Shown here: piece by piece, positions 4,681 to 60,039 of the stretch
Position numbering within the stretch: position 1 is the stretch's first letter
How the letters are laid out: the number at the start of each line of letters is the position of its first letter
Sequence record: OQ031495
Length of the DNA: 64,000 nucleotides
From: Escherichia phage MRostami-2023e
Direction: 5' to 3' (one strand)
Notes under the pieces: model-generated
The model's input: only the letters and a program-made list of their open reading frames with translations
Database searches by the model: none
What the model was told of the DNA's origin: nothing
Position numbers and translations under genes: made by a program

Positions 4681-4953
4681 ATGTCTAAAGAACAAACCGA
4701 ACTGGCTGAAGCTGTAGCAAAAATCTATGCAGCTATTGAGGCTGCCAAAGAAATTGCTGATAAACAAAACACAACATTCAACTTGTACCCAGCTTATGGT
4801 ATGGGTGGAACCTATCATTCACCCGGACAGCTTAAAGCCGATCTTGAACGTTGTACAAAAAACGGCTATGCTGAATGGGCCGACGTTTACCAATACGACT
4901 ACAACCTGAGCCTCGAAACTGGTGGTTGGGTTGCATCTTCTCACACTTGCTAA
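4681..4953 (+). CDS. hypothetical protein, tandem paralog 2 (C-terminal GGWVASSHTC)
   Basis: Shared C-terminal motif and helical N-terminus. Confidence 0.6.
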   Translation: MSKEQTELAEAVAKIYAAIEAAKEIADKQNTTFNLYPAYGMGGTYHSPGQLKADLERCTKNGYAEWADVYQYDYNLSLETGGWVASSHTC

Positions 4954-4962
4954 GGAAACCAT

Positions 4963-5160
4963 ATGTCTCGTGAATTGGATTGTGCTGTACGTACGGCAGT
5001 AGCTGCTCTGGAAAACCTGTTCCAAATTGCAACAGAAGAACGCGAAGAAGTTACATTATGGATTGAAGATAACGCAGGTCTGAATCTCCAGGACGCGATC
5101 TCATTATCCCACAATAGTATCACTGTTCAAGGCTGGGTATCATCTAGTTATTCTTGCTAA
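4963..5160 (+). CDS. hypothetical protein, tandem paralog 3 (C-terminal QGWVSSSYSC)
   Basis: Shared C-terminal motif. Confidence 0.55.
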   Translation: MSRELDCAVRTAVAALENLFQIATEEREEVTLWIEDNAGLNLQDAISLSHNSITVQGWVSSSYSC

Positions 5161-5164
5161 AACA

Positions 5165-5195
5165 GTTTACAACAAGATAGGGCTATGTTATAGTA
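5165..5195 (+). promoter_or_regulatory. T4-type early promoter candidate
   Basis: GTTTACA, 18-nt spacer, TGtTATAGT; palindrome ataggact/agtcctat around the -10. Confidence 0.5.
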
Positions 5196-5222
5196 GTCCT
5201 ATCAAATTAAATGGAGTTCACA

Positions 5223-5462
5223 ATGATTTATTACGAAAGTATCGGAACCGAAGTAGTTGCTAAAACTATTACTCGTGAAAAGTTTGCAAAGATATTCGAT
5301 ATGCGTTATAAAAAATCTGAACACAAAGGCATCCGATTCGAAGATGCGCACTGTACAATTTGCCCTTATAATGAAGACATAAACGGTACAATCGTTCCAT
5401 TGGTAGAGGCTTCACATGTCGACCTCTGGGATGAATATGATATCGCATGTCGTGAAATTTAA
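5223..5462 (+). CDS. hypothetical protein (79 aa)
   Basis: GGAG Shine-Dalgarno upstream of ATG at 5223. Confidence 0.5.
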   Translation: MIYYESIGTEVVAKTITREKFAKIFDMRYKKSEHKGIRFEDAHCTICPYNEDINGTIVPLVEASHVDLWDEYDIACREI

Positions 5463-5490
5463 GTTAATGAATTAATCCGAGGAAAATATT

Positions 5491-6447
5491 ATGATGTTAG
5501 TTATTGGTTCTCGTGCACTTCACTATCACGGTCTTATTGATTCTAGCGCTATCAAAAATAGTGATTGGGACTTTATTGCGGACCAATGTTCTTGGAATGC
5601 ATTCAAAAATCAAATGATGGGTGTATATGTCCACCAAGATAACCCTGATGTCCAAGTTTTCAAATGCTTCCATAATGGACGCGAAACTCATTTTGAAGCA
5701 TATATTGTTCCGGCAATCACTAACGTTCGCGAACTAGTCGGTGAACTCACTCCTGAAGATTTCACGTCTTCTTATGACCTTTTAAAATACGCCAAGAAAA
5801 ATTTGACTAAAGACCGTTTGAACGGGTTTTACTGGGCAACTCCCGAGATATGTCTTGCAATTAAGATGTCTCATCGTTTCAAGAAAAATAATCCATTCTT
5901 TTTAAAGACTATGAACCATATTCAGTATCTTCGTGGTAAAGGTGTTACACTGAACGATGAACTTACTGAAATTATGCTGAAACGCCAGAAAGAAACCTTG
6001 AACTATGCTCACCCAGTTCTTGACACTTCTAAAAGTGCGTTCTTTAAAGATGACATCTATACATATGACCATGATACTATTCACGAAGCCATTGCGTTAA
6101 CAGGCCGCCCAGCGTATACATTTTATATGAAAGACGGTTCTGAAGTCATGACCTCACGTGAGAAGTTCGAATCGTTACCAGAAATGGTCAAATTGGCCGG
6201 TGTATATGAAGAATCATGTGTACTAGCATTAGAACGTTCTCAGATTCCTAATGACTTTAAAATTAACCCTGAAGCCAGTTTCATGATGGCATTAGAAAAA
6301 GTCTGCACAAGCATCACCTCCGGTTGGTTCCGTGAATACGCATACGAGAACTACAGCAAAGTTGTAAGTATGTATCATAAGCTCGGCAAAAATGATTACA
6401 TTAAACGGTTTAAAGAAAATTTTCATATGGTGAAACCTTTCAAATAA
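5491..6447 (+). CDS. hypothetical protein (318 aa), possible minimal nucleotidyltransferase fold
   Basis: N-terminal GS...(15 aa)...DWDF pattern resembles Pol-beta-type NTase hG[GS]/DxD motif; weak. Confidence 0.5.
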   Translation: MMLVIGSRALHYHGLIDSSAIKNSDWDFIADQCSWNAFKNQMMGVYVHQDNPDVQVFKCFHNGRETHFEAYIVPAITNVRELVGELTPEDFTSSYDLLKYAKKNLTKDRLNGFYWATPEICLAIKMSHRFKKNNPFFLKTMNHIQYLRGKGVTLNDELTEIMLKRQKETLNYAHPVLDTSKSAFFKDDIYTYDHDTIHEAIALTGRPAYTFYMKDGSEVMTSREKFESLPEMVKLAGVYEESCVLALERSQIPNDFKINPEASFMMALEKVCTSITSGWFREYAYENYSKVVSMYHKLGKNDYIKRFKENFHMVKPFK

Positions 6448-6728
6448 CTTCACAAAACTGTTTACANNNNNNNNNNNNNNNNNNNNNNNNNNNNNNNNNN
6501 NNNNNNNNNNNNNNNNNNNNNNNNNNNNNNNNNNNNNNNNNNNNNNNNNNNNNNNNNNNNNNNNNNNNNNNNNNNNNNNNNNNNNNNNNNNNNNNNNNNN
6601 NNNNNNNNNNNNNNNNNNNNNNNNNNNNNNNNNNNNNNNNNNNNNNNNNNNNNNNNNNNNNNNNNNNNNNNNNNNNNNNNNNNNNNNNNNNNNNNNNNNN
6701 NNNNNNNNNNNNNNNNNNNNNNNNNNNN

Positions 6729-8986: not shown

Positions 8987-9475
8987 ATGAATATATTTGA
9001 AATGCTTCGTAATGACGAAGGTCTTAGACTGACTTTATACAAAGACACTGAAGGCTTTTGGACGATTGGCATAGGCCATTTAGTAACAAAGAACCCGTCT
9101 TTAGCCGTAGCTAAAGCTGAACTTGACAGAATGATCGGACGTAAATGCAACGGTACAATTACCCTTGATGAGGCCGAAAAGCTATTTAATGAAGACGTTG
9201 ATAAAGCCGTTCGCGGAATCTTGGGTAATGCTAAACTTAAACCGGTATATGATTCTTTAGATGCGGTTCGTCGTTGTGCATTGGTCAATATGGTCTTCCA
9301 AATGGGTGTAGCAGGCGTCGCCGGTTTTACTAATTCTCTTCGTATGCTTCAACAGAAACGTTGGGATGAAGCGGCAGTAAATCTAGCCCAATCTAAATGG
9401 TATCGTCAGACACCTAATCGCGCGAAACGCGTAATCTCAACATTTAAAACAGGAACTTGGAAAGCGTATATATGA
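8987..9475 (+). CDS. e: T4-type lysozyme (endolysin, gene e)
   Basis: MNIFEMLR...DEGLRL..YKDTEG..TIGIGHL...[27 protein letters not shown] matches remembered T4 lysozyme nearly throughout. Confidence 0.95.
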
Positions 9476-9753
9476 AAACATATAGTGAATTTTTATCAGA
9501 ATCTATTCTTAACGAAGCTACTGACACATTTGCAACTAAGCTAGGTGCAGCTTTGGTTGAAGCCGAAAGTCTACTAGCACGTATTTCTGAACTTGCTAGT
9601 AAGATAGATACTCGCAAATTTGAACGTACTAGCGATATCGCTAAGCTTGAAGCCTTGTTACGTATGTGCAATAAACCGGAAGAAATCGCTAAGAACGGCT
9701 CGCTGATGAAACAACGTCTTGAAAAATATATTTCAGGCGCTTCAGAAAAATAG
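9472..9753 (+). CDS. internal protein (IPII/IPIII-like) with capsid targeting sequence
   Basis: N-terminus [10 protein letters not shown]; T4 position of ipIII/ipII between e and denV. Confidence 0.65.
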
Positions 9754-9754
9754 T

Positions 9755-9788
9755 GTTTACTTCCTCCAAGGGTTTTGATACTATACAT
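9755..9788 (+). promoter_or_regulatory. T4-type early promoter candidate upstream of denV
   Basis: GTTTAC ... gaTACTATac. Confidence 0.4.
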
Positions 9789-9811
9789 TCATCAACTACT
9801 TGGAGGAAATT

Positions 9812-10348
9812 ATGACTCGTATCAATTTAACACTTGTTTCTGAACTGACCGACCAACATCTTATGGCTGAGTATCGTGAATTACCACGCGTATTTGGTGC
9901 AGTCCGTAAACATGTTCAAAACGGTAAACGTGTAAAGGATTTTAAAATCTCTCCAACATTTATCTTAGGCACAGGTCACGTAACATTCTTTTACGACAAA
10001 CTTGAATTTTTACGTTTAAGACAAATCGAGCTAATCGCTGAATGTTTGAAACGTGGTTTCAAAATCAAGGACACGACAGTCCAGGATATTTCCGACATCC
10101 CTGCCGAATTTCGTAATAATTATGTCCCGTCCGAAGCGTCCATTGCGATAAGTCAAGCACGCTTAGATGAAAAAATTGCTCAACGTCCGACTTGGTACAA
10201 ATACTATGGTAAATCAATTTACCAAGGAAAAATGAAAATGTATCAAGAATTTATCATTGAAGCAGATGCCAAAGGTCCTAAAGTAGATGTTGACGATATT
10301 GGATACGATTTTAACAACTTCGGAATTATTTCTGGCGGTAAAGCTTAA
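9812..10348 (+). CDS. denV: endonuclease V (pyrimidine-dimer DNA glycosylase DenV) with about 40-aa C-terminal extension
   Basis: First about 136 aa match remembered T4 DenV ([34 protein letters not shown]..); normal stop position is read through into [16 protein letters not shown].. Confidence 0.85.
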
Positions 10349-44894: not shown

Positions 44895-45530
44895 ATGAAA
44901 ACTACTCCTATTACTATCGCTATTGACGCAATCATAAAACAAGCTTCTTCTTTGGCCGCTATGGCCAAAGTAATTAGTCAAAACCCTGCTCGTTATAATG
45001 CTATTCTAGAAACTCTTCGACGCCCTGGACTTAGTAATTATGAAAGCCGAGTAATTATTACAGGTGTTGGTAAGAATGCTAATATTGCAACTAAAGCGTC
45101 TGAGACATTTGCTTCACTCGGTATCCCGAGTATGTACTTGAACACTGGGCATTATTCTCACGGTGATGCAGGATTTATTGCGCCTAATGATGTGTTGATT
45201 CATATTAGTCGTTCTGGTAAAACTGAAGAAATGATAGGCGTGGCTAAGCATCTTAAAATGATTCGCCCGAACGTCAAACAGATTCTGTTGCATTGTAACC
45301 CAGACATTCCACAAGAATACGAAGCCCTTTTTGATTACTCTTTCTGTACAGGCATCGCGGTAGAAGTTGATGAGAATTCTCTGGCTCCGACTATGTCCAC
45401 TACATTGTTGTTAGCGCTTATCGATACGTTTGCTATCAACCTTTCGTCTGAACGTGGATTTACCTCTAATGACTTCCTTAAGTTCCACCCTGGCGGTGCA
45501 CTAGGTGCCATGTTACGAGGCGAACAATGA
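44895..45530 (+). CDS. SIS-domain sugar-phosphate isomerase, arabinose-5-phosphate isomerase (KdsD/GutQ)-like, no CBS domains
   Basis: ITGVGKNANIATKASETFASLGIPSMYLNTGHYSHGDAGFIAPNDVLIHISRSGKTEE resembles the KdsD SIS core (GxGKS...HGDxG...SxSG). Confidence 0.7.
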   Translation: MKTTPITIAIDAIIKQASSLAAMAKVISQNPARYNAILETLRRPGLSNYESRVIITGVGKNANIATKASETFASLGIPSMYLNTGHYSHGDAGFIAPNDVLIHISRSGKTEEMIGVAKHLKMIRPNVKQILLHCNPDIPQEYEALFDYSFCTGIAVEVDENSLAPTMSTTLLLALIDTFAINLSSERGFTSNDFLKFHPGGALGAMLRGEQ

Positions 45531-45670
45531 AAGCAATAACAATAGGACTTTTACTATTGATGCTTGTCATGACTATCTACTGGAGCTTAACGGCTCCAGT
45601 AATGATTCCAACACTTGTAATTGGATGGATTATGATTGGACTACAAGCAAAGTATGAATGCTTTAACTAG
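45527..45670 (+). CDS. small hydrophobic membrane peptide (47 aa)
   Basis: ATGA overlap with SIS gene stop; MKAITIGLLLLMLVMTIYWSL...; below the ORF-track size cutoff. Confidence 0.35.
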   Translation: MKAITIGLLLLMLVMTIYWSLTAPVMIPTLVIGWIMIGLQAKYECFN

Positions 45671-45711
45671 AATAGTGTACAATACTCCTACTTACCAATG
45701 AGGACCACAAC

Positions 45712-47397
45712 ATGAAAAAAGCTGTTATTCTTGGTGCTGGACTGGCAACTCGTTTGTATCCAATAACGCATCATATTCCTAAGGTGCTTGTTAACTATAA
45801 ACAAGACACTATTCTGAGCAATTTGTATACAATTTATTCTGACCTTGGCGCAGATGAAATTATTGTAGTAGTTCATTCAAAATTTGCTGAAACTGTTCGA
45901 GCTTATTGTGAGCAAGAAGGGTTCAATGTGACTATTCGTACAGTTGATGAAGCGTATGGTTCTGCTTATGCTCTTGCTAAATTACACAAAGATTTAGACG
46001 GCCATAATGTAATTGTTAACTGGTGTGATATTATTCCGGATTTTGGTTCATGGTCTTGGAATGTTAACGCAATCTATGTTAAGGGTGACGAATGTCGATA
46101 TAATTTCGACGGTGAAAATATCACTAACGTAGGTTCAACAGGTGGTAATGTTGTAGGAATTTATCAGTTCAAAGACTGGGAATTCTATATGGGTTCTACC
46201 GATGAGGAAATTCATGAATACTGCAAAGGACGTGATTTCGTAGAATTCCTTTACGGCAGCGCATTCAATAAATCAGAGCTTATGAATCTAATTGATTTAG
46301 GTGATATGCCTAAACTTGAAAAAGCTCATGAAGTTCGTGAACTTAATCGTAGTTTTAATGCAGTTGAAATTGGTGAAGAAACTGTAACTAAATTCGCATT
46401 AACCGAACAGGGTCGAGCTCTTCAGAAAGATGAGATTTCATGGTATCTTAAAGTGAAATCAGATTCAGTTCCTCAGTTAGTTTCTGTTAATGAAAATAAC
46501 TTTGAAATGGAACGCATTAAAGGTAAGCCGGCATTTGAATATATTAAATCAAAATCAAGTCTTGCTCGTCCACAAATTATTGATGCAATTTTAGATGCAC
46601 TGAAATTCAGCACAGACACTTATTTTGTAAGTCCTGAAACTGTTCGCCGTGATTTCACTAAAGAATTCTATACGAAAGTTATTGATCGTTGTGAAAGTAT
46701 TCAACCATTGATTGATTCATTTGGTAAAATCACACATGTGAACTACACTAAGATTGGGCGTCTGAAGCCAATGTTGAAACAAGCTTTAGAACATCTTATT
46801 CGTTATCATAACCGTTCTCAGGGACAGTACTCTGTTATTCACGGTGACCCGAACTTCAGTAATACTATGATTACTGATAACGGCGAAGTCAAGTTTATCG
46901 ACCCTCGTGGATATTTTGGCGAAACCAAGATTTACGGGCCAAAATTGTATGATGAAGCTAAAGTGCTTTATGCTGTTTCAGGTTATGATGAATTCAATGC
47001 TAATCCGGCCTGGGGACAGTTTACTATTGATGAAACAACTTGTAATGTGACTATTAACATCAATCCATTAGTTTACAAATATGGAAAGATGAGTTCGTTT
47101 AACGAGTATCATCATTTGGCAGTGGCAATTATCTGGATTGCATTAGGTGGTTATTTCAAGAATAATCCACTTAAAGCGGTTGCCGCATATTATAAAGGTA
47201 TGGAACTTCTGACTAAGCAATTACGTAACATGGGCCGTGTACTTCAAGACGGCTCTATTAGTTATGACGTAGCAGAACCTGTAACGGCTACTCTGATTAC
47301 AAAAAATCCGGGTAAATGGGTACTAACTGATAAAGAAACTGGTGTTTCCTATCGTCCAATCGGTGGCGATATCACTCATCAATGGGAACGAATCTAA
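45712..47397 (+). CDS. bifunctional sugar-1-phosphate nucleotidylyltransferase (N-terminal) / aminoglycoside-phosphotransferase-type sugar kinase (C-terminal)
   Basis: N-terminal KKAVILGAGLATRLYPIT (GxGxRL NTP-transferase motif); C-terminal HGDPNFSNTMI...KFIDPRGYFG (APH/choline-kinase Brenner motif plus D-x-R/G). Confidence 0.7.
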   Translation: MKKAVILGAGLATRLYPITHHIPKVLVNYKQDTILSNLYTIYSDLGADEIIVVVHSKFAETVRAYCEQEGFNVTIRTVDEAYGSAYALAKLHKDLDGHNVIVNWCDIIPDFGSWSWNVNAIYVKGDECRYNFDGENITNVGSTGGNVVGIYQFKDWEFYMGSTDEEIHEYCKGRDFVEFLYGSAFNKSELMNLIDLGDMPKLEKAHEVRELNRSFNAVEIGEETVTKFALTEQGRALQKDEISWYLKVKSDSVPQLVSVNENNFEMERIKGKPAFEYIKSKSSLARPQIIDAILDALKFSTDTYFVSPETVRRDFTKEFYTKVIDRCESIQPLIDSFGKITHVNYTKIGRLKPMLKQALEHLIRYHNRSQGQYSVIHGDPNFSNTMITDNGEVKFIDPRGYFGETKIYGPKLYDEAKVLYAVSGYDEFNANPAWGQFTIDETTCNVTININPLVYKYGKMSSFNEYHHLAVAIIWIALGGYFKNNPLKAVAAYYKGMELLTKQLRNMGRVLQDGSISYDVAEPVTATLITKNPGKWVLTDKETGVSYRPIGGDITHQWERI

Positions 47398-47783
47398 TGC
47401 ACCGTGTAGAAAACATGCTTAATCTTTATTTTGATGTCGATGATTGTATAACAGAGTGGAATAACAATCGTGATTACGTGAACTTCAAGCCAGACGTCGA
47501 AATGGTGTCTGCCATTAATGCCCTGTATGATGCAGGGCATACCATAACGCTTTACACTGCTCGCGGTATGAAGTCAGTAGGTCCTGGACGTATAGCAATT
47601 GACATTCTCCCAAGTCTGATTCAGAACTTGGCAAACATTGGCTTGAAGTACCATAATTTGCTAACACATAAACCAGTATATGATTGGATTATCGACGACA
47701 AAGCTATGCGTCCTGACGAATTCAAAGCTCTTATGAATAAAGGCGAATTCGAAACATTTAAATCATATAAACCGAATCTATAA
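47397..47783 (+). CDS. HAD-superfamily phosphatase (subfamily IIIA-like)
   Basis: Motif I FDVDDCIT, motif II TITLYTAR, motif III HKP, motif IV IIDDK; TAATG coupling to upstream gene. Confidence 0.65.
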   Translation: MHRVENMLNLYFDVDDCITEWNNNRDYVNFKPDVEMVSAINALYDAGHTITLYTARGMKSVGPGRIAIDILPSLIQNLANIGLKYHNLLTHKPVYDWIIDDKAMRPDEFKALMNKGEFETFKSYKPNL

Positions 47784-47840
47784 TAATTTAAGTAAGACCT
47801 GCAAAAACCATCGCATCAATTAACGTGAGATGCAAAAAAA

Positions 47841-49001
47841 ATGAATACTTTTAAAATCGGAACGAATTTTGATTTAGCTCTTCTTGATAAAATCGTAGAG
47901 CTCAATAAAACTTATCCTAATAGCTTGATAAACGAAGTATACGGCTCTACAAGAGAAATGGCTTTTGTAGCAGCCAGACCTGATTTTAGGCTTCCTGACG
48001 TTGACAAAAAGATGTTAGAAGATTACGTTAAACGTTGTAACGAATTAGGTATTTGCTTTAACTATACACTCAACACGATAAATCCGGGTTCAAAAAGAGA
48101 ACTAGTTGAGTGGAAGAAGAAAGCTATTCAGGACTATGTTCAGTATCTTTGGTCAATAGGCGTATGGCGTATTACTATCGCTAACCCTGTTGTTATGGAA
48201 ATTGTTCGTGAAGTCAATAAAGACATTGAGATTGAAGTTTCAACAATTCTACATGTCGATGCTGTAACTCAAATCAAATACTTGCATGACCAGTATAATA
48301 TCAAAAAGGTCTGCTGTGGAATTCATAAGAACCGTTCAGTTTCTTTCCTGAAGCGTGCAGCAGAGTTTTGCAATAAGAACAATATAATATTTGAAGTTCT
48401 TGTAAATGAGTTCTGTTCTAATGCTGGTAAAGGGTATACAACACATTGTAGCTATCGTGACTCTTGCTATATTTTCCATAGTACTGATGTTACAGCTGAT
48501 GATGCTAAATCCTTAAATGGATATCCTATGCAGCACTGTATTAAAGCTCGTGATACAGACCCATTTAACTGGTTGAGAACTCGTTTTGTTCGTCCACAAG
48601 ATTTGAAACTTTATAATGATATTGGTATCACTCAATTTAAAGTTTCGGGACGTACAGGTAGCACAGACTACATTTTGAAAGTTCTTGAAGCATACGCTTC
48701 TGAAAAGTTTGAAGGTAATTTGTTAGAATTGTGGAAGCCTTTAGAGACCATTTTCACTCTTGAAAATGAGACCGAGTTTTCACATACGGTAAATATTGAA
48801 ACCTCTTTGTTAGATGGCTTTTTAGAAAAAAGGTGGTTCAGACATCCAGATTTCGATTGTGCTAATGAAATCTGCGGGACGACGTGTACATATTGTGAAA
48901 GATATTATAAACGTCAGTTATCTAAAAACGGGTTAGCAGAAAACTCTATATCTATTATTGATATAACTAACTCTGATGACGCTTTGAGGTACCCGGAATG
49001 A
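47841..49001 (+). CDS. Cys-rich protein (386 aa), possible TIM-barrel/U32-like or Fe-S enzyme
   Basis: Cys clusters KVCCGIH, EFCSNAGKGYTTHCSYRDSC and C-terminal CANEICGTTCTYC; fold assignment tentative. Confidence 0.55.
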   Translation: MNTFKIGTNFDLALLDKIVELNKTYPNSLINEVYGSTREMAFVAARPDFRLPDVDKKMLEDYVKRCNELGICFNYTLNTINPGSKRELVEWKKKAIQDYVQYLWSIGVWRITIANPVVMEIVREVNKDIEIEVSTILHVDAVTQIKYLHDQYNIKKVCCGIHKNRSVSFLKRAAEFCNKNNIIFEVLVNEFCSNAGKGYTTHCSYRDSCYIFHSTDVTADDAKSLNGYPMQHCIKARDTDPFNWLRTRFVRPQDLKLYNDIGITQFKVSGRTGSTDYILKVLEAYASEKFEGNLLELWKPLETIFTLENETEFSHTVNIETSLLDGFLEKRWFRHPDFDCANEICGTTCTYCERYYKRQLSKNGLAENSISIIDITNSDDALRYPE

Positions 49002-49237
49002 TTTCTAGAAAAACTTTTAATTATAATCTTAACGAAGAGATTTTGACTATTAAACTGAACACTAACGAACAAATTCTTAAAAAGGCCCTTATGGGCCTGT
49101 TTGAAACCAAAGCGGCTAAAGTGATTAAAGAACCTGTTCAATTGGAATACTACACTGATGCATTCCTTCATAGTGTTCTTGGAAGTATAGATTCTGAAGC
49201 TTTACGTTATATCAACATTGCCAAGAAATTCAAATAA
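48998..49237 (+). CDS. hypothetical protein (79 aa)
   Basis: ATGA-coupled. Confidence 0.45.
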   Translation: MISRKTFNYNLNEEILTIKLNTNEQILKKALMGLFETKAAKVIKEPVQLEYYTDAFLHSVLGSIDSEALRYINIAKKFK

Positions 49238-49278: not shown

Positions 49279-49995
49279 ATGGGAAAACATAACACAATGA
49301 AATATATCAAAGCCGCAGATTTTCAAACCGCATTTAAAGCAGTCAATCGTGAAATTTTAGAAAACCCGGAATTCGTAACTGATTCTCGTATTGGACGTTG
49401 TAATGAAATTGGGTCTATGACAGTAGTTGTTGACACTCCATCATCATTCAAAATGACCGACCCACGTATTAACCGCATCTCTTATGAATATGCCGAAGAC
49501 TTCTGGAAGTTTATGATTTCTGGTGGTACTGATGCAGAAGAAGCGTTTAAGGCATATCCTAATGTCGCTAAATTTATTTCTAAACCTAAATCAGACGCTT
49601 TGCCTGCAAACTTCAACACTTTCTACGGTCCTCGCATTGCGGCCCAATTACCGGCTCTTCTAAAAGAACTTAAAGAGAAGCCTAACTCTCGAAGAGTTGT
49701 GTTCCAAATTCTAGAAAGTTCTGATCAGGCTTTGCTTGATTCGGACGAAACGCTTGAATATCCATGTACTGACTCAGTGACTTATTATATTCGCGATGGT
49801 AAGCTTTATACCCACTGTCATATGCGTTCTCAGAACTGTGCTGTTGTTATGCAGTTGGATTTTTATCTCCAAGGAAAATTACTTCATTATATCGCTAACG
49901 AATGTGGTGTAGAAGTTGGTGATTATACTCATACCATGGTAAGTGCCCATGTGTTTGAACGTGATTTTGATTATGTTAAAGGGTTTCTTGACTAA
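49279..49995 (+). CDS. 42: dCMP hydroxymethylase gp42 (thymidylate-synthase fold)
   Basis: Position between 43 and uvsX; YPCTDSVTYYIRDGKL and HMRSQN resemble the catalytic-Cys region of T4 gp42; start may be 49297. Confidence 0.7.
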   Translation: MGKHNTMKYIKAADFQTAFKAVNREILENPEFVTDSRIGRCNEIGSMTVVVDTPSSFKMTDPRINRISYEYAEDFWKFMISGGTDAEEAFKAYPNVAKFISKPKSDALPANFNTFYGPRIAAQLPALLKELKEKPNSRRVVFQILESSDQALLDSDETLEYPCTDSVTYYIRDGKLYTHCHMRSQNCAVVMQLDFYLQGKLLHYIANECGVEVGDYTHTMVSAHVFERDFDYVKGFLD

Positions 49996-50894
49996 TGGCT
50001 ATTTTCCGCGTACCTATTTTGAGTATGCGGTCTTATGAAACTGGACAGTATGCTATCCTTAAGGATGGCAACTTCCAACTTCATTTGCACCGTGCTAATC
50101 CAGGCGATGTGATTACATATCCACGTAATGCATCTGATATTAAAGAATGTGAACGTCTTTTCCCAGAATTTAAGTTTGTTCCATTATGGTATAAAGATAA
50201 CGCGTATAACACTCGTAAATATTTCTGGTCTGAAAATGAATTTGTGGTTGATTCATTAATTGCTTATTATGATTGTGATTTTCTAATCACAGATATCACT
50301 GGATATGATGGCGCTTTTGACGTAGAATTCAATTTCAATATCACTGCAGACCCTAATAAACCACGTTTTTATATTGACGAATTCTTAAAAACCGACATGT
50401 TGTCGGTTAATCGTTCACTTCAAACTACTGTGTTGAATGAACGTCAAAAAGAAGTGCTGGTTAACGCAGGTGCAGATGGTAATAAGATTATCGTAACGCA
50501 GAAAGTTATACGTCCTTCCGTCATGCAGCGTCTTGTAGGTGATTTGGCTCCTATTCATCTAGATGGTATTTTTCATCCATTTCGAATTAGTGACCCATGC
50601 TATCGTTTTGAACAAGTTGTTGAATGCGCAATTCAATTAGGTCAACCGCTTTATATAACTGATCCAAATAATAGTTTCGACAGAAATAAGTATCCTGAAG
50701 AAGCGCTGATTCGAATTTTTAATCCAACTAAAACTGAGTACTATCAAATTCTTAAAGGACGTCCGAAGATTCAATATTTCGAAAATCCTGAAGAAGTATT
50801 CCATCCAGGTCTTGGTGAGTTCATCTACTTTAACGCTTTAATTTCTTCGCCGTATAATATACCTAAATACGAAGATGTCGTAATCGAGGAATAA
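49995..50894 (+). CDS. hypothetical protein (299 aa) occupying the T4 beta-glucosyltransferase position
   Basis: ATGA-coupled to gene 42; no recognisable motif. Confidence 0.55.
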   Translation: MAIFRVPILSMRSYETGQYAILKDGNFQLHLHRANPGDVITYPRNASDIKECERLFPEFKFVPLWYKDNAYNTRKYFWSENEFVVDSLIAYYDCDFLITDITGYDGAFDVEFNFNITADPNKPRFYIDEFLKTDMLSVNRSLQTTVLNERQKEVLVNAGADGNKIIVTQKVIRPSVMQRLVGDLAPIHLDGIFHPFRISDPCYRFEQVVECAIQLGQPLYITDPNNSFDRNKYPEEALIRIFNPTKTEYYQILKGRPKIQYFENPEEVFHPGLGEFIYFNALISSPYNIPKYEDVVIEE

Positions 50895-50895
50895 A

Positions 50896-51444
50896 ATGGC
50901 TAAAATTATTTTAGTAGATGGCCCAGATAATGCTGGTAAAACAACTTTCATTAATGACATAATGGAAATTAGTGAAAGATATGTAAAGATTGATTTCCCT
51001 AAACGAACAGTTGATGGACGTTTCGATGTTAAGTCTCGAAATGAAGTTGGCTGTTTCGAAACGATGTTGAATTATTTAGACCCTACTAAGATTTATCTGT
51101 TAGACCGTGGATATATTAGTAACTGGGTTTATGGACGTATTCGACAAGATGCGGATTCGGTTCTTGACGTTTATGAACAGGATTATATTCGTCTTTGCCA
51201 AAACCATGATGTGTTCACAATTATTTTAACACGTAACGAAATGACTGAAAGTTTTGAAGACGACCTTATTACTTTGTCTTCATTCGGTTTTAATACAGTC
51301 ATTTCACATTTTGAAGAGTTTGCAATTCATAACAAAATCCAAACGTATCAATTACTTAATCATGATGGTGCTAACAAAGTTATAGGATTTAATGCAAGCG
51401 AACGTAATGATTTGATTACAGAAATCATCAAATGGGCTCGTTAA
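50896..51444 (+). CDS. thymidylate-kinase-like P-loop nucleotide kinase
   Basis: P-loop LVDGPDNAGKTT and LDRGYISNWVYG (Tmk-like DRY-type motif). Confidence 0.55.
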   Translation: MAKIILVDGPDNAGKTTFINDIMEISERYVKIDFPKRTVDGRFDVKSRNEVGCFETMLNYLDPTKIYLLDRGYISNWVYGRIRQDADSVLDVYEQDYIRLCQNHDVFTIILTRNEMTESFEDDLITLSSFGFNTVISHFEEFAIHNKIQTYQLLNHDGANKVIGFNASERNDLITEIIKWAR

Positions 51445-59429: not shown

Positions 59430-59517
59430 AATATCTCCTTAGTTACCTATTATTTATTACGCTTTATAAAATTAATGTTAGAATTAACTCTCTTATACTG
59501 AATTGAAAGGAAAAATA

Positions 59518-60039
59518 ATGGCACACTTTAACGAATGTTCACAACTTATTTCTGGTGTTGATAAAGCAGAAGAAGCTTATTTTAATGCTCTGATTCACGA
59601 AGATAAAGACCCACTGCAGGTAATGCTTGATATGCAGAAATCTTTACAGGTTCGTCTGGCAAATGACAAGCCTGAACATAACAAACATCCTGATGAATTG
59701 GCTACCGCTGGTGATGTTGTTGATTGGCTGCGTAATCAGAAAGATTATATTGATGATGAATTCCGCGAACTGCTGACTTCTCTTGGTGGTATGAGCAATG
59801 GCGAAAAAGCCGCCAGCAGTGTATGGAAGCCGTGGAAGGCACAACATGCTGAATATCGAAATCGTCGTATCGATGAACTGTCTCCTGAAGACCAGCTTGA
59901 AATTAAATTCGAGATGATTGATATCCTCCACTTTGTTCTGAATATGTTCCAAGGTCTGGGTCTTTCCGCTGAAGAAATCTTTAAACTTTACTACTTGAAA
60001 AACCAACACAACTTTGAACGTCAGGATAATGGTTACTGA
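59518..60039 (+). CDS. 56: dCTP pyrophosphatase gp56 (MazG-like)
   Basis: MAHFNEC...DPLQVMLDMQ...RLAN...SPEDQLEIKFE..D..HFVLNMF.GLG...EEIFKLYYLKN matches remembered T4 gp56. Confidence 0.9.
   Translation: MAHFNECSQLISGVDKAEEAYFNALIHEDKDPLQVMLDMQKSLQVRLANDKPEHNKHPDELATAGDVVDWLRNQKDYIDDEFRELLTSLGGMSNGEKAASSVWKPWKAQHAEYRNRRIDELSPEDQLEIKFEMIDILHFVLNMFQGLGLSAEEIFKLYYLKNQHNFERQDNGY

Follow-up and report, generated by a model that had tools for sequence, protein, structure and literature searches.

What do the genes behind the DNA polymerase gene of an RB69-like phage make, and do all of them serve one pathway? The question is raised by Escherichia phage MRostami-2023e (sequence record OQ031495), of which a stretch of 64,000 nucleotides, here called the window, was analysed. 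At positions 44,895 to 49,001 of the window, four plus-strand genes encode a SIS-domain protein, a fusion protein of 561 amino acids (aa), a HAD phosphatase and a cysteine-rich protein of the U32 family. A preliminary description of this DNA, made from the letters alone, had read the four as a single pathway that supplies a nucleoside diphosphate (NDP) arabinose for the decoration of 5-hydroxymethylcytosine (hmC) in DNA. We consider it probable that the cluster is built of two blocks, a known UDP-arabinose donor block and an acceptor-base block, in which we give the U32 protein about even odds of being a hydroxylase. More specifically, the U32 protein may belong to a phage-borne subfamily of prephenate-dependent, O2-independent iron-sulphur (Fe-S) hydroxylases making 5-hydroxypyrimidine deoxynucleotides, an anaerobic counterpart of the thymidylate synthase (TS)-type enzyme encoded nearby; we put this forward tentatively, a little short of even confidence. 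The genes of the cluster are the following.

44895..45530, plus strand: predicted SIS-only arabinose-5-phosphate isomerase (ribulose-5-phosphate to D-arabinose-5-phosphate), 99.5% identical to RB69 gp55.
45712..47397, plus strand: predicted bifunctional AfhE-like enzyme, a C-terminal arabinose-5-phosphate kinase with an N-terminal arabinose-1-phosphate/UTP nucleotidyltransferase, 99.1-99.5% identical to RB69 ORF053c+ORF052c.
47397..47783, plus strand: predicted AfhF-like Mg-dependent HAD phosphatase (arabinose-1,5-bisphosphate to arabinose-1-phosphate), identical to PDB 9iqw in 127 of 128 residues and 98.4% identical to RB69 gp51.
47841..49001, plus strand: U32-family cysteine-rich protein of 386 aa, the equivalent of RB69 gp50 (Pfam Peptidase_U32, PF01136).
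49279..49995, plus strand: TS homolog, predicted flavin- and O2-dependent 5-hydroxy-dCMP synthase, 100% identical to RB69 gp48 and identical to PDB 9iqc/9ir2 in 235 of 238 residues.
49995..50894, plus strand: putative DNA arabinosyltransferase 1, intact, 299 aa, 98-99% identical to RB69 ORF047c+ORF046c (gp47:46).
50896..51444, plus strand: thymidylate-kinase-like nucleotide kinase, 98.9% identical to RB69 gp45 (PHROG 761, thymidylate kinase).

To judge from its identities, the window phage is an RB69-like Mosigvirus. The interval 44895-49001 has 100% nucleotide identity to Escherichia phage vB_EQ1 and 98.2% to RB69 ORF050c-055c, another 152 phage records match it over 80% or more of its length, and the open reading frames (ORFs) of the window mostly show 98-100% protein identity to RB69 gp45-gp55. 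The flanking genes form a T4-type replication module, with 45, 44, 62, regA and 43 upstream and uvsX downstream; T4 has 43-imm.1-imm-42-beta-gt-segA-uvsX at this position, and the four genes do stand where T4 has imm.1 and imm, as the preliminary description had it. The interval from the DNA polymerase gene to uvsX is an arabinosyl-5-hydroxycytosine DNA hypermodification cluster, with the same genes in the same order as the clusters of RB69, HY126 (Afh), Bas46/47 and, apart from two genes discussed below, DLP3. The three sugar genes show no material difference from those of RB69 and HY126. The RB69 reference (L001) splits two genes, at 4819-6505 and 9102-10002, that are single intact ORFs in the window (45712-47397 and 49995-50894), in keeping with the published explanation of the RB69 splits by sequencing errors, two frameshifts in all.

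The four ORFs are present at 44895-45530, 45712-47397, 47382 or 47397 to 47783, and 47841-49001, and encode 211, 561, 133 or 128, and 386 aa, the last with 13 cysteines. For the HAD gene the start at 47397, giving 128 aa, is supported over the 133-aa start because it is the start of the RB69 annotation and of the PDB 9iqw construct. All motifs originally quoted for the proteins were recovered: GVGKNANIATKASETFASLG, HGDAG and ISRSGKT in the SIS protein, ILGAGLATRLYPIT, HGDPNFSN and FIDPRG in the fusion protein, and DVDD, TITLYTAR, HKP and IIDDK in the HAD protein.

Profile searches agree with the sugar-enzyme families first proposed for the SIS, fusion and HAD proteins, and place the fourth in Peptidase_U32. 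The SIS protein matches Pfam SIS (E 5.7e-10; 39.5 bits against a cutoff of 25) and the NCBIfam models KpsF/GutQ (E 2.7e-32) and KdsD (E 1.2e-30), in both cases over the SIS half of the model only; the match to the KpsF model covers positions 2-153 of 268 and, at 112 bits, lies below the curated cutoff of 203.7. Because the match is confined to this half, the 211-aa protein is read, as before, as KdsD/GutQ-like without the C-terminal tandem CBS domains of the full-length KpsF/GutQ/KdsD architecture. Against the PDB it finds 3etn, 5uqi and 2xhz with E 1e-19 to 1e-25, 2xhz and 3etn being arabinose-5-phosphate isomerases. The fusion of a nucleotidylyltransferase to a kinase is likewise borne out, with Pfam NTP_transferase at residues 3-99 (E 8.8e-10), weak kinase-fold matches at residues 344-409 and a match to LicC in the PDB (1jyk, E 2e-5). 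The third protein, with its DVDD nucleophile motif, falls into the capsule-phosphatase HAD family TIGR01689 (E 6.9e-13).

What these three proteins do can be taken from the literature. The presence of arabinose in RB69 DNA was reported by Thomas et al. (2018), who also showed ORF053c+ORF052c to be one 561-residue gene and proposed that this gene, together with ORF055c, serves UDP-arabinose synthesis. According to Lee et al. (2026; PMC13326640), gp55, gp52:53 and gp51 take ribulose-5-phosphate to NDP-arabinofuranose. He et al. (2026), as summarised in PMC13326640, identified HY126 AfhE as an arabinose-5-phosphate kinase joined to a UDP-arabinose pyrophosphorylase and AfhF as a Mg-dependent phosphatase acting on arabinose-1,5-bisphosphate, and are reported there to have reconstituted the UDP-arabinose pathway for AfhE/AfhF. 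For HY126, both the formation of UDP-arabinose from ribulose-5-phosphate by the three enzymes alone and the detection of arabinose-1,5-bisphosphate as an intermediate are reported. The PDB entries 9iqw, named 'capsule biosynthesis protein', and 9iqc, 9ir2 and 9iqu, named 'thymidylate synthase', are consistent with HY126 structures. Since the window proteins are 98-100% identical to those of RB69, and the HAD protein and TS homolog nearly identical to the PDB entries, the three predicted sugar-donor genes are already published and biochemically defined on essentially identical proteins. The claim that no one had defined this donor pathway biochemically is thereby overtaken, the pathway having been proposed in 2018 and, by the same summary of He et al., reconstituted since. 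Nor does the order first suggested, from arabinose-5-phosphate through free arabinose to arabinose-1-phosphate, agree with the published one, which in that summary runs from arabinose-5-phosphate through arabinose-1,5-bisphosphate and arabinose-1-phosphate to UDP-arabinofuranose. In the donor block, then, the SIS protein would isomerise host ribulose-5-phosphate to D-arabinose-5-phosphate, the C-terminal kinase domain of the fusion protein would phosphorylate C1 to give arabinose-1,5-bisphosphate, the HAD phosphatase would take off the 5-phosphate, and the N-terminal nucleotidyltransferase domain would use UTP to turn the resulting arabinose-1-phosphate into UDP-arabinofuranose, from which a downstream glycosyltransferase (GT) would move arabinofuranose onto 5-hydroxycytosine in DNA.

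The acceptor base had been taken to be hmC and the downstream gene to be dCMP hydroxymethylase (42), and neither holds. The base of RB69 DNA is mono- or di-arabinosylated 5-hydroxycytosine (5hoC), with the sugar ether-linked straight to C5 (PMC13326640), and an independent 2026 paper (PMC13390438) states that RB69 was 'erroneously identified' as the hydroxymethyl form; replacement of cytosine by the arabinosylated 5hoC was shown by liquid chromatography-mass spectrometry and nuclear magnetic resonance for RB69 and Mosigvirus NP (PMC13326640, PMC13390438). The downstream gene encodes the counterpart of RB69 gp48, a flavin-binding enzyme that makes 5-hydroxy-dCMP rather than 5-hydroxymethyl-dCMP and takes its oxygen from O2, as seen in an in vivo experiment with 18O2 (PMC13326640). 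From the 98% nucleotide identity to RB69 we infer that the virion DNA of the window phage carries mono- and di-arabinosylated 5-hydroxycytosine. RB69 gp47:46 has been assigned as arabinosyltransferase 1 (PMC13326640). As to position, the module does follow gene 43 and precede this TS homolog, with a 79-aa ORF (48998-49237) intervening between the U32 gene and the TS homolog.

Given that the phage base is 5-hydroxycytosine and that the relatives of the U32 protein are hydroxylases, gp50 was examined as a second hydroxylase. None of the characterised U32 proteins is a peptidase: they are Fe-S hydroxylases that work without O2 and depend on prephenate (PMC5727448, PMC6747719, PMC10990095). RlhA makes 5-hydroxycytidine in 23S rRNA and TrhP 5-hydroxyuridine in tRNA, while UbiU-UbiV act on ubiquinone precursors, which they hydroxylate with oxygen from prephenate; prephenate and Fe-S dependence are established for RlhA and UbiU/V (PMC5727448, PMC6747719, PMC10990095). 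The window protein matches Peptidase_U32 at residues 94-286 (E 7.3e-11; 42.2 bits against a gathering cutoff of 22.4). In an alignment of 32 members of its subfamily, reaching down to 46% identity, ten cysteines are invariant (C158, C177, C192, C203, C209, C233, C340, C345, C349 and C352), with the spacing C192-x10-C203-x5-C209-x23-C233 and, at the C-terminus, C340-x4-C345-x3-C349-x2-C352. The profile of the subfamily found RlhA as its sole useful match (E 2e-5 over 203 columns), and in the hhalign alignment the invariant E190, C203 and C209 fall on RlhA E161, C169 and C176. Mutation of C169 or C176 abolishes 5-hydroxycytidine formation by RlhA and E161A nearly does so, and two C-terminal cysteines are needed too. 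The AlphaFold2 model of the protein has a mean predicted local distance difference test (pLDDT) score of 90.6; Foldseek returned the U32 structure 5d88 as its best match in the PDB, the remainder being generic TIM barrels, and the PDB gave no match when searched with the protein sequence. Residues 340-352, C-x4-C-G-x-x-C-x-Y-C, include a stretch, CX3CX(aromatic)C, that resembles the radical-SAM (S-adenosylmethionine) cluster motif, set C-terminally on a U32 barrel, and could bind a second Fe-S cluster. Across genera no other protein of the cluster is as well conserved as U32: its identity is 79-87%, that of the TS homolog 72-84% and that of the fusion enzyme 42-73%. PMC13326640 names RB69 gp50 in a table only, as a 'sugar or heterocycle reductase', with no mention of U32, prephenate or chorismate, and the Thanatos paper holds no discussion of its U32 homologue. 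The idea of a prephenate-dependent U32 hydroxylase of DNA precursors was not found in the searchable literature, a search that did not reach He et al. 2026 or Mahler et al. 2025.

The distribution of the gene among sequenced phages sets it apart from the sugar pathway. The fusion gene occurs in 373 phage records, 57 of them Acinetobacter phages, and the U32 gene in 221, all at no less than 80% identity and with Enterobacterales and Shewanella as hosts. Acinetobacter phage Berthold has the order SIS-fusion-HAD-TS-GT-kinase and lacks exactly the U32 gene and the small ORF that follows it; DLP3 and other Acinetobacter phages lack the same two genes, both of which the window has, and so does the E. 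coli phage IME08, a Dhakavirus that keeps the fusion, HAD and TS genes. In Thanatos-2 the U32 gene and a chorismate mutase gene have moved as a pair, to a place after the kinase gene instead of before the TS gene. Since Berthold and IME08 do without it and Thanatos-2 has it relocated, the U32 gene is a separable cassette that is dispensable for the sugar pathway. Thus the NDP-arabinose pathway first proposed stands for the SIS, fusion and HAD genes, from ribulose-5-phosphate to the donor for DNA arabinosylation, and fails for the fourth gene, which the Acinetobacter and Dhakavirus phages are missing. A strict rule by which phages of aerobic hosts have no U32 gene was considered and dropped: it fits the Acinetobacter phages, but IME08 grows on E. 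coli and has none either.

A second feature of the distribution is the link to chorismate mutase, the enzyme whose product is prephenate. A type II chorismate mutase lies within one or two ORFs after the U32 gene in Entb_45, PM2, TG1, Pm5461, X20, Thanatos-2 and a Klebsiella phage; CM_2 domains above the Pfam gathering score follow the U32 gene in 7 genera, and the Entb_45 protein matches PDB 1ybz with E 3.5e-8. In all, 51 phage records contain the phage chorismate mutase, and in each of them it lies next to the TS homolog. The window phage would rely on PheA/TyrA of its host for prephenate, as do the U32 enzymes of E. coli itself.

More distant relatives extend both observations. The subfamily has 268 database homologues, and neighbourhoods with 10 kb flanks were sampled at 35 viral or metagenomic loci, which form 26 lineages at 90% identity, and at 11 further loci from genome assemblies. 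In the 26 lineages the U32 gene is accompanied by a Tmk-like kinase in 22 and a gp46:47-like GT in 19, by homologues of the fusion gene in 12, of the HAD gene in 10 and of the SIS gene in 9, and by a TS-like gene in one. Direct searches found fusion-gene homologues near the U32 gene at 17 of the 35 loci, and phmmer found arabinosyltransferase homologues adjoining it at 14 distant loci. One contig (L005) in which the U32 gene had seemed to travel without sugar genes was discarded as an example when a fusion-gene homologue turned up nearby; six lineages have a bare triad of kinase, GT and U32 without sugar genes. Kinase and GT can even be fused in a single protein of 525-606 aa beside the U32 gene, for which four loci were counted; the fusions lie at the following places.

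L040:2594-4411, kinase-GT fusion beside the U32 gene.
L049:5237-7057, kinase-GT fusion beside the U32 gene.
L055:5354-7006, kinase-GT fusion beside the U32 gene.
L061:5237-7057, kinase-GT fusion beside the U32 gene.
L068:9133-10710, kinase-GT fusion beside the U32 gene.

Prephenate supply recurs here in another form. Fusions of DAHP synthase with chorismate mutase adjoin the U32 gene at L042:8411-9433, L045:7302-8357, L046:8332-9387, L056:11079-12197 and L068:6931-7959, and stand-alone DAHP synthases at L005:11145-11891 and L031:9384-10130. That these DAHP_synth_1 neighbours might be Kdo8P synthases, which would consume arabinose-5-phosphate, was rejected: DAHP models match with E 1e-36 to 1e-70 as against 1e-12 to 1e-18, a lead of 20 to 50 orders of magnitude, and in four of the proteins a chorismate mutase is joined to the synthase. 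The uncultivated phage contigs that bear these genes show, in their own right, that phages encode enzymes at the entry and at the branch point of the shikimate pathway.

A further recurrent array joins a GP88-like protein, a fusion of a guanylate kinase with a SAM methyltransferase (414-443 aa), a protein of about 267 aa without a Pfam match, and U32. It lies around position 8000 in L066 (the same as L003), L072, L073, L074 and L075, the last from a Phocaeicola faecalis isolate, and suggests a putative hydroxylate-then-methylate nucleotide modification, possibly to a 5-methoxy pyrimidine, in phages or prophages of anaerobes. All genome-assembly matches are in anaerobe lineages, for example Oscillospiraceae, Romboutsia, Tannerella, Phocaeicola and Gastranaerophilaceae. 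Two side observations concern these contigs: radical SAM/SPASM proteins are encoded a few genes from U32 in two unrelated ones (L002:1314-2249 and L003:14160-15185), and L003/L066 holds a second, divergent U32 paralogue (L003:15227-16360).

In the acceptor-base block, the TS homolog would hydroxylate dCMP with flavin and O2, and the U32 protein would be a second hydroxylase, of the RlhA/TrhP/UbiU-UbiV class, with Fe-S clusters and an oxygen atom drawn from prephenate. During host growth without oxygen it would supply 5-hydroxy-dCMP, or hydroxylate cytosine in DNA. By acting at the nucleotide level it would provide the hydroxyl that the adjacent transferase decorates, which would explain its constant kinase partner, and its need for prephenate would explain the chorismate mutase and DAHP synthase genes beside it; in most of the distant phages, and so in many uncultivated phages of anaerobes, it would be the sole hydroxylase. 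We infer this role from the sequence and the gene neighbourhood of the U32 protein; the steps predicted for the donor block and the activity of the TS homolog are taken from work on identical or near-identical proteins.

How do other explanations of the fourth gene fare? That all four genes form one NDP-arabinose pathway to arabinosyl-hmC, with the phosphatase releasing free arabinose, the kinase making arabinose-1-phosphate and the cysteine-rich protein as an unspecified member, would suit their adjacency on one strand, the free-arabinose order listed in Table 1 of PMC13326640 and the presence of SIS, fusion and HAD homologues beside U32 in 12 of the 26 distant lineages. We regard it as quite improbable, since the text of PMC13326640, in its account of HY126, has AfhE as an arabinose-5-phosphate kinase and AfhF acting on the 1,5-bisphosphate, the base is 5hoC rather than hmC (PMC13326640, PMC13390438), the Acinetobacter and Dhakavirus phages have the pathway without U32, and the bare triads have U32 without the pathway. 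A narrower possibility is that the U32 protein acts on a sugar or sugar nucleotide, for instance in redox or tailoring of arabinose or a precursor, as the label 'sugar or heterocycle reductase' in Table 1 of PMC13326640 implies. Frequent adjacency to the sugar genes and the TIM barrel, a common fold of sugar enzymes, speak for it, but every characterised U32 member hydroxylates aromatic carbons and none acts on a sugar, pentose chemistry offers no reason for a link to chorismate mutase and DAHP synthase, DLP3 is reported to make the same arabinosylated base without U32, and U32 is found also with kinase and GT alone or with the kinase-methyltransferase fusion; this reading is unlikely, though the best placed of the alternatives.

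The closeness to RlhA, the best profile match, raises the further thought that the protein hydroxylates host or phage rRNA or tRNA, as RlhA and TrhP do, and so tunes translation during infection. T4-like phages do encode tRNAs and RNA-modifying functions. The phage protein, however, lacks the C-terminal DUF3656 region of RlhA (386 aa as against 653 aa), sits in a DNA-modification cluster, travels with dNMP-type kinases, GTs, dCMP deaminase, uracil-DNA glycosylase and dUTPase, and occurs almost only where a glycosyl or methyl transferase adjoins, so that an RNA substrate is hardly probable. Least credible is a genuine collagenase-like peptidase. Most phage records label the protein 'peptidase' or 'collagenase-like protease', and its top fold match is the 'U32 peptidase' Mk0906, but that annotation goes back to the name of the family, and its ten invariant cysteines, its agreement with RlhA at the motif and its genomic link to prephenate supply point to the Fe-S hydroxylase class instead.

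Several points weigh against the two-block reading with U32 as a second hydroxylase. In aerobic E. coli gp48 alone suffices for 5hoC formation (PMC13326640). The U32 gene lies beside sugar genes in 12 of the 26 distant lineages, and it is this frequent adjacency that keeps a role in sugar chemistry in play. Only 2 of the 4 canonical U32 cluster-ligand cysteine positions align confidently, and the profile reached no significance when compared with UbiU, UbiV and TrhP, each as a single sequence. A six-frame search with the phage chorismate-mutase hidden Markov model (HMM) found no chorismate mutase in the window (best E 0.12), and none of the 51 phage records with this gene is a Mosigvirus. Because Dhakaviruses infect E. 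coli without it, U32 is not obligatory in phages of facultative anaerobes. In the donor block, the order of kinase before phosphatase rests on the summary of He et al. 2026 in PMC13326640, and Table 1 of the same paper keeps the older order through free arabinose.

Three smaller features complete the locus.

45560..45670, plus strand: conserved hydrophobic mini-ORF of 36 aa, MLVMTIYWSLTAPVMIPTLVIGWIMIGLQAKYECFN, the equivalent of RB69 ORF054c and annotated in RB69.
48998..49237, plus strand: cysteine-free ORF of 79 aa that overlaps the U32 stop codon (ATGA), the equivalent of RB69 gp49 (PHROG 8601, function unknown).
59488..60036, plus strand: gene 56-like dCTP pyrophosphatase within a stop-to-stop segment, found by phmmer with the annotated Thanatos-2 dCTPase (E 4.5e-73).

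The mini-ORF is probably a real small membrane peptide, as phages PM2, TG1 and X20 have homologous mini-ORFs after the SIS gene, with the common motif PVMIPTL...LQAK(Y/F)xCF. The 79-aa ORF is 90% identical to RB69 gp49, as against 98-100% for the neighbouring proteins, and is homologous (E 1e-12 to 1e-13) to small ORFs that PM2 and TG1 have between U32 and chorismate mutase. In phage Entb_45 the ORF at this place is annotated as chorismate mutase; for the window ORF this was rejected, as it has no Pfam match up to E 10 and scores -0.5 bits with an HMM of seven phage chorismate mutases. The dCTP pyrophosphatase, of the gene 56 type, lies about 8 kb downstream, and Table 1 of PMC13326640 lists this enzyme in the pathway, where removal of dCTP leads the modified nucleotide to replace cytosine. 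The tight coupling first ascribed to the four genes holds in part: there is overlap between the fusion and HAD genes (TAATG) and between U32 and the 79-aa ORF, while a gap of 181 nt, in which the mini-ORF lies, separates the SIS gene from the fusion gene and one of 57 nt precedes the U32 gene. Scans of the window for generic sigma-70 promoters and for terminators were at chance (26 found, 25.9 expected) and are therefore uninformative on operon structure. By eye, a sequence like a T4 middle promoter (a MotA-box-like TGCTTTA, 12 nt, then TACAAT) can be seen at 45660-45695 of the plus strand, just 5' of the fusion gene start.

Set beside known systems, the cluster shares with the glucosyl-hmC system of T4 (gp42, gp1, alpha- and beta-glucosyltransferases) both its position and its logic, in which a TS-superfamily enzyme acts on dCMP, kinase and polymerase incorporate the product and a GT decorates it. 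It differs in that the hydroxyl is placed directly on C5 with flavin and O2, where T4 adds a hydroxymethyl group, in that arabinofuranose comes from a phage-made donor, where T4 uses host UDP-glucose, and in having the sugar genes in the place of imm/imm.1. With KdsD/GutQ (SIS), KdsC (HAD) and KdsB (nucleotidyltransferase) of the 3-deoxy-D-manno-octulosonate (Kdo) pathway it shares superfamilies and the first step, ribulose-5-phosphate to arabinose-5-phosphate, whereas its SIS protein has no CBS pair, there is no Kdo8P synthase, and the route to UDP-arabinose would run through the 1,5-bisphosphate, with kinase and nucleotidyltransferase in one fusion protein. The U32 protein shares with RlhA (ho5C2501 of 23S rRNA), TrhP (ho5U34 of tRNA) and UbiU-UbiV the PF01136 domain, the extra conserved C-terminal cysteines and the genomic link to prephenate supply; its E...C-x5/6-C-Y-I-x-H motif falls on the essential residues of RlhA, whose chemistry is also at C5 of cytosine. 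It nevertheless forms a separate subfamily, with about 23% identity in the aligned core, ten invariant cysteines and a CX4CX3CX2C tail, without DUF3656 or a partner subunit, and would presumably act on a deoxynucleotide or DNA where the others act on RNA or a quinone. An O2-dependent flavoenzyme beside a candidate O2-independent Fe-S enzyme recalls the pairs UbiI/H/F and UbiU/V, TrhO and TrhP, and NrdAB and NrdDG, although the redundancy in the window is hypothetical and most of the distant phages have the U32 type alone.

For RB69-like phages both the donor pathway and the chemistry of the base are already in the literature, and the module as first posed adds nothing to published work; the interest left in it is the fourth gene. 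The published hydroxylase needs O2, yet RB69-like phages infect enterobacteria in a largely anoxic gut. If the U32 protein is the hydroxylase proposed here, it would explain how DNA can be fully modified, and so resistant to restriction and CRISPR, without oxygen, and it would explain why phages carry shikimate-pathway genes, as a boost to prephenate supply. It would extend the chemistry of organic oxygen donors from RNA and quinones to DNA precursors, the first such substrate of a U32 hydroxylase. New glycosylated and methoxylated DNA bases would be predicted in phages of anaerobes, and, of concern to phage therapy, a phage stock could differ in the modification of its DNA according to the oxygen level during its growth.

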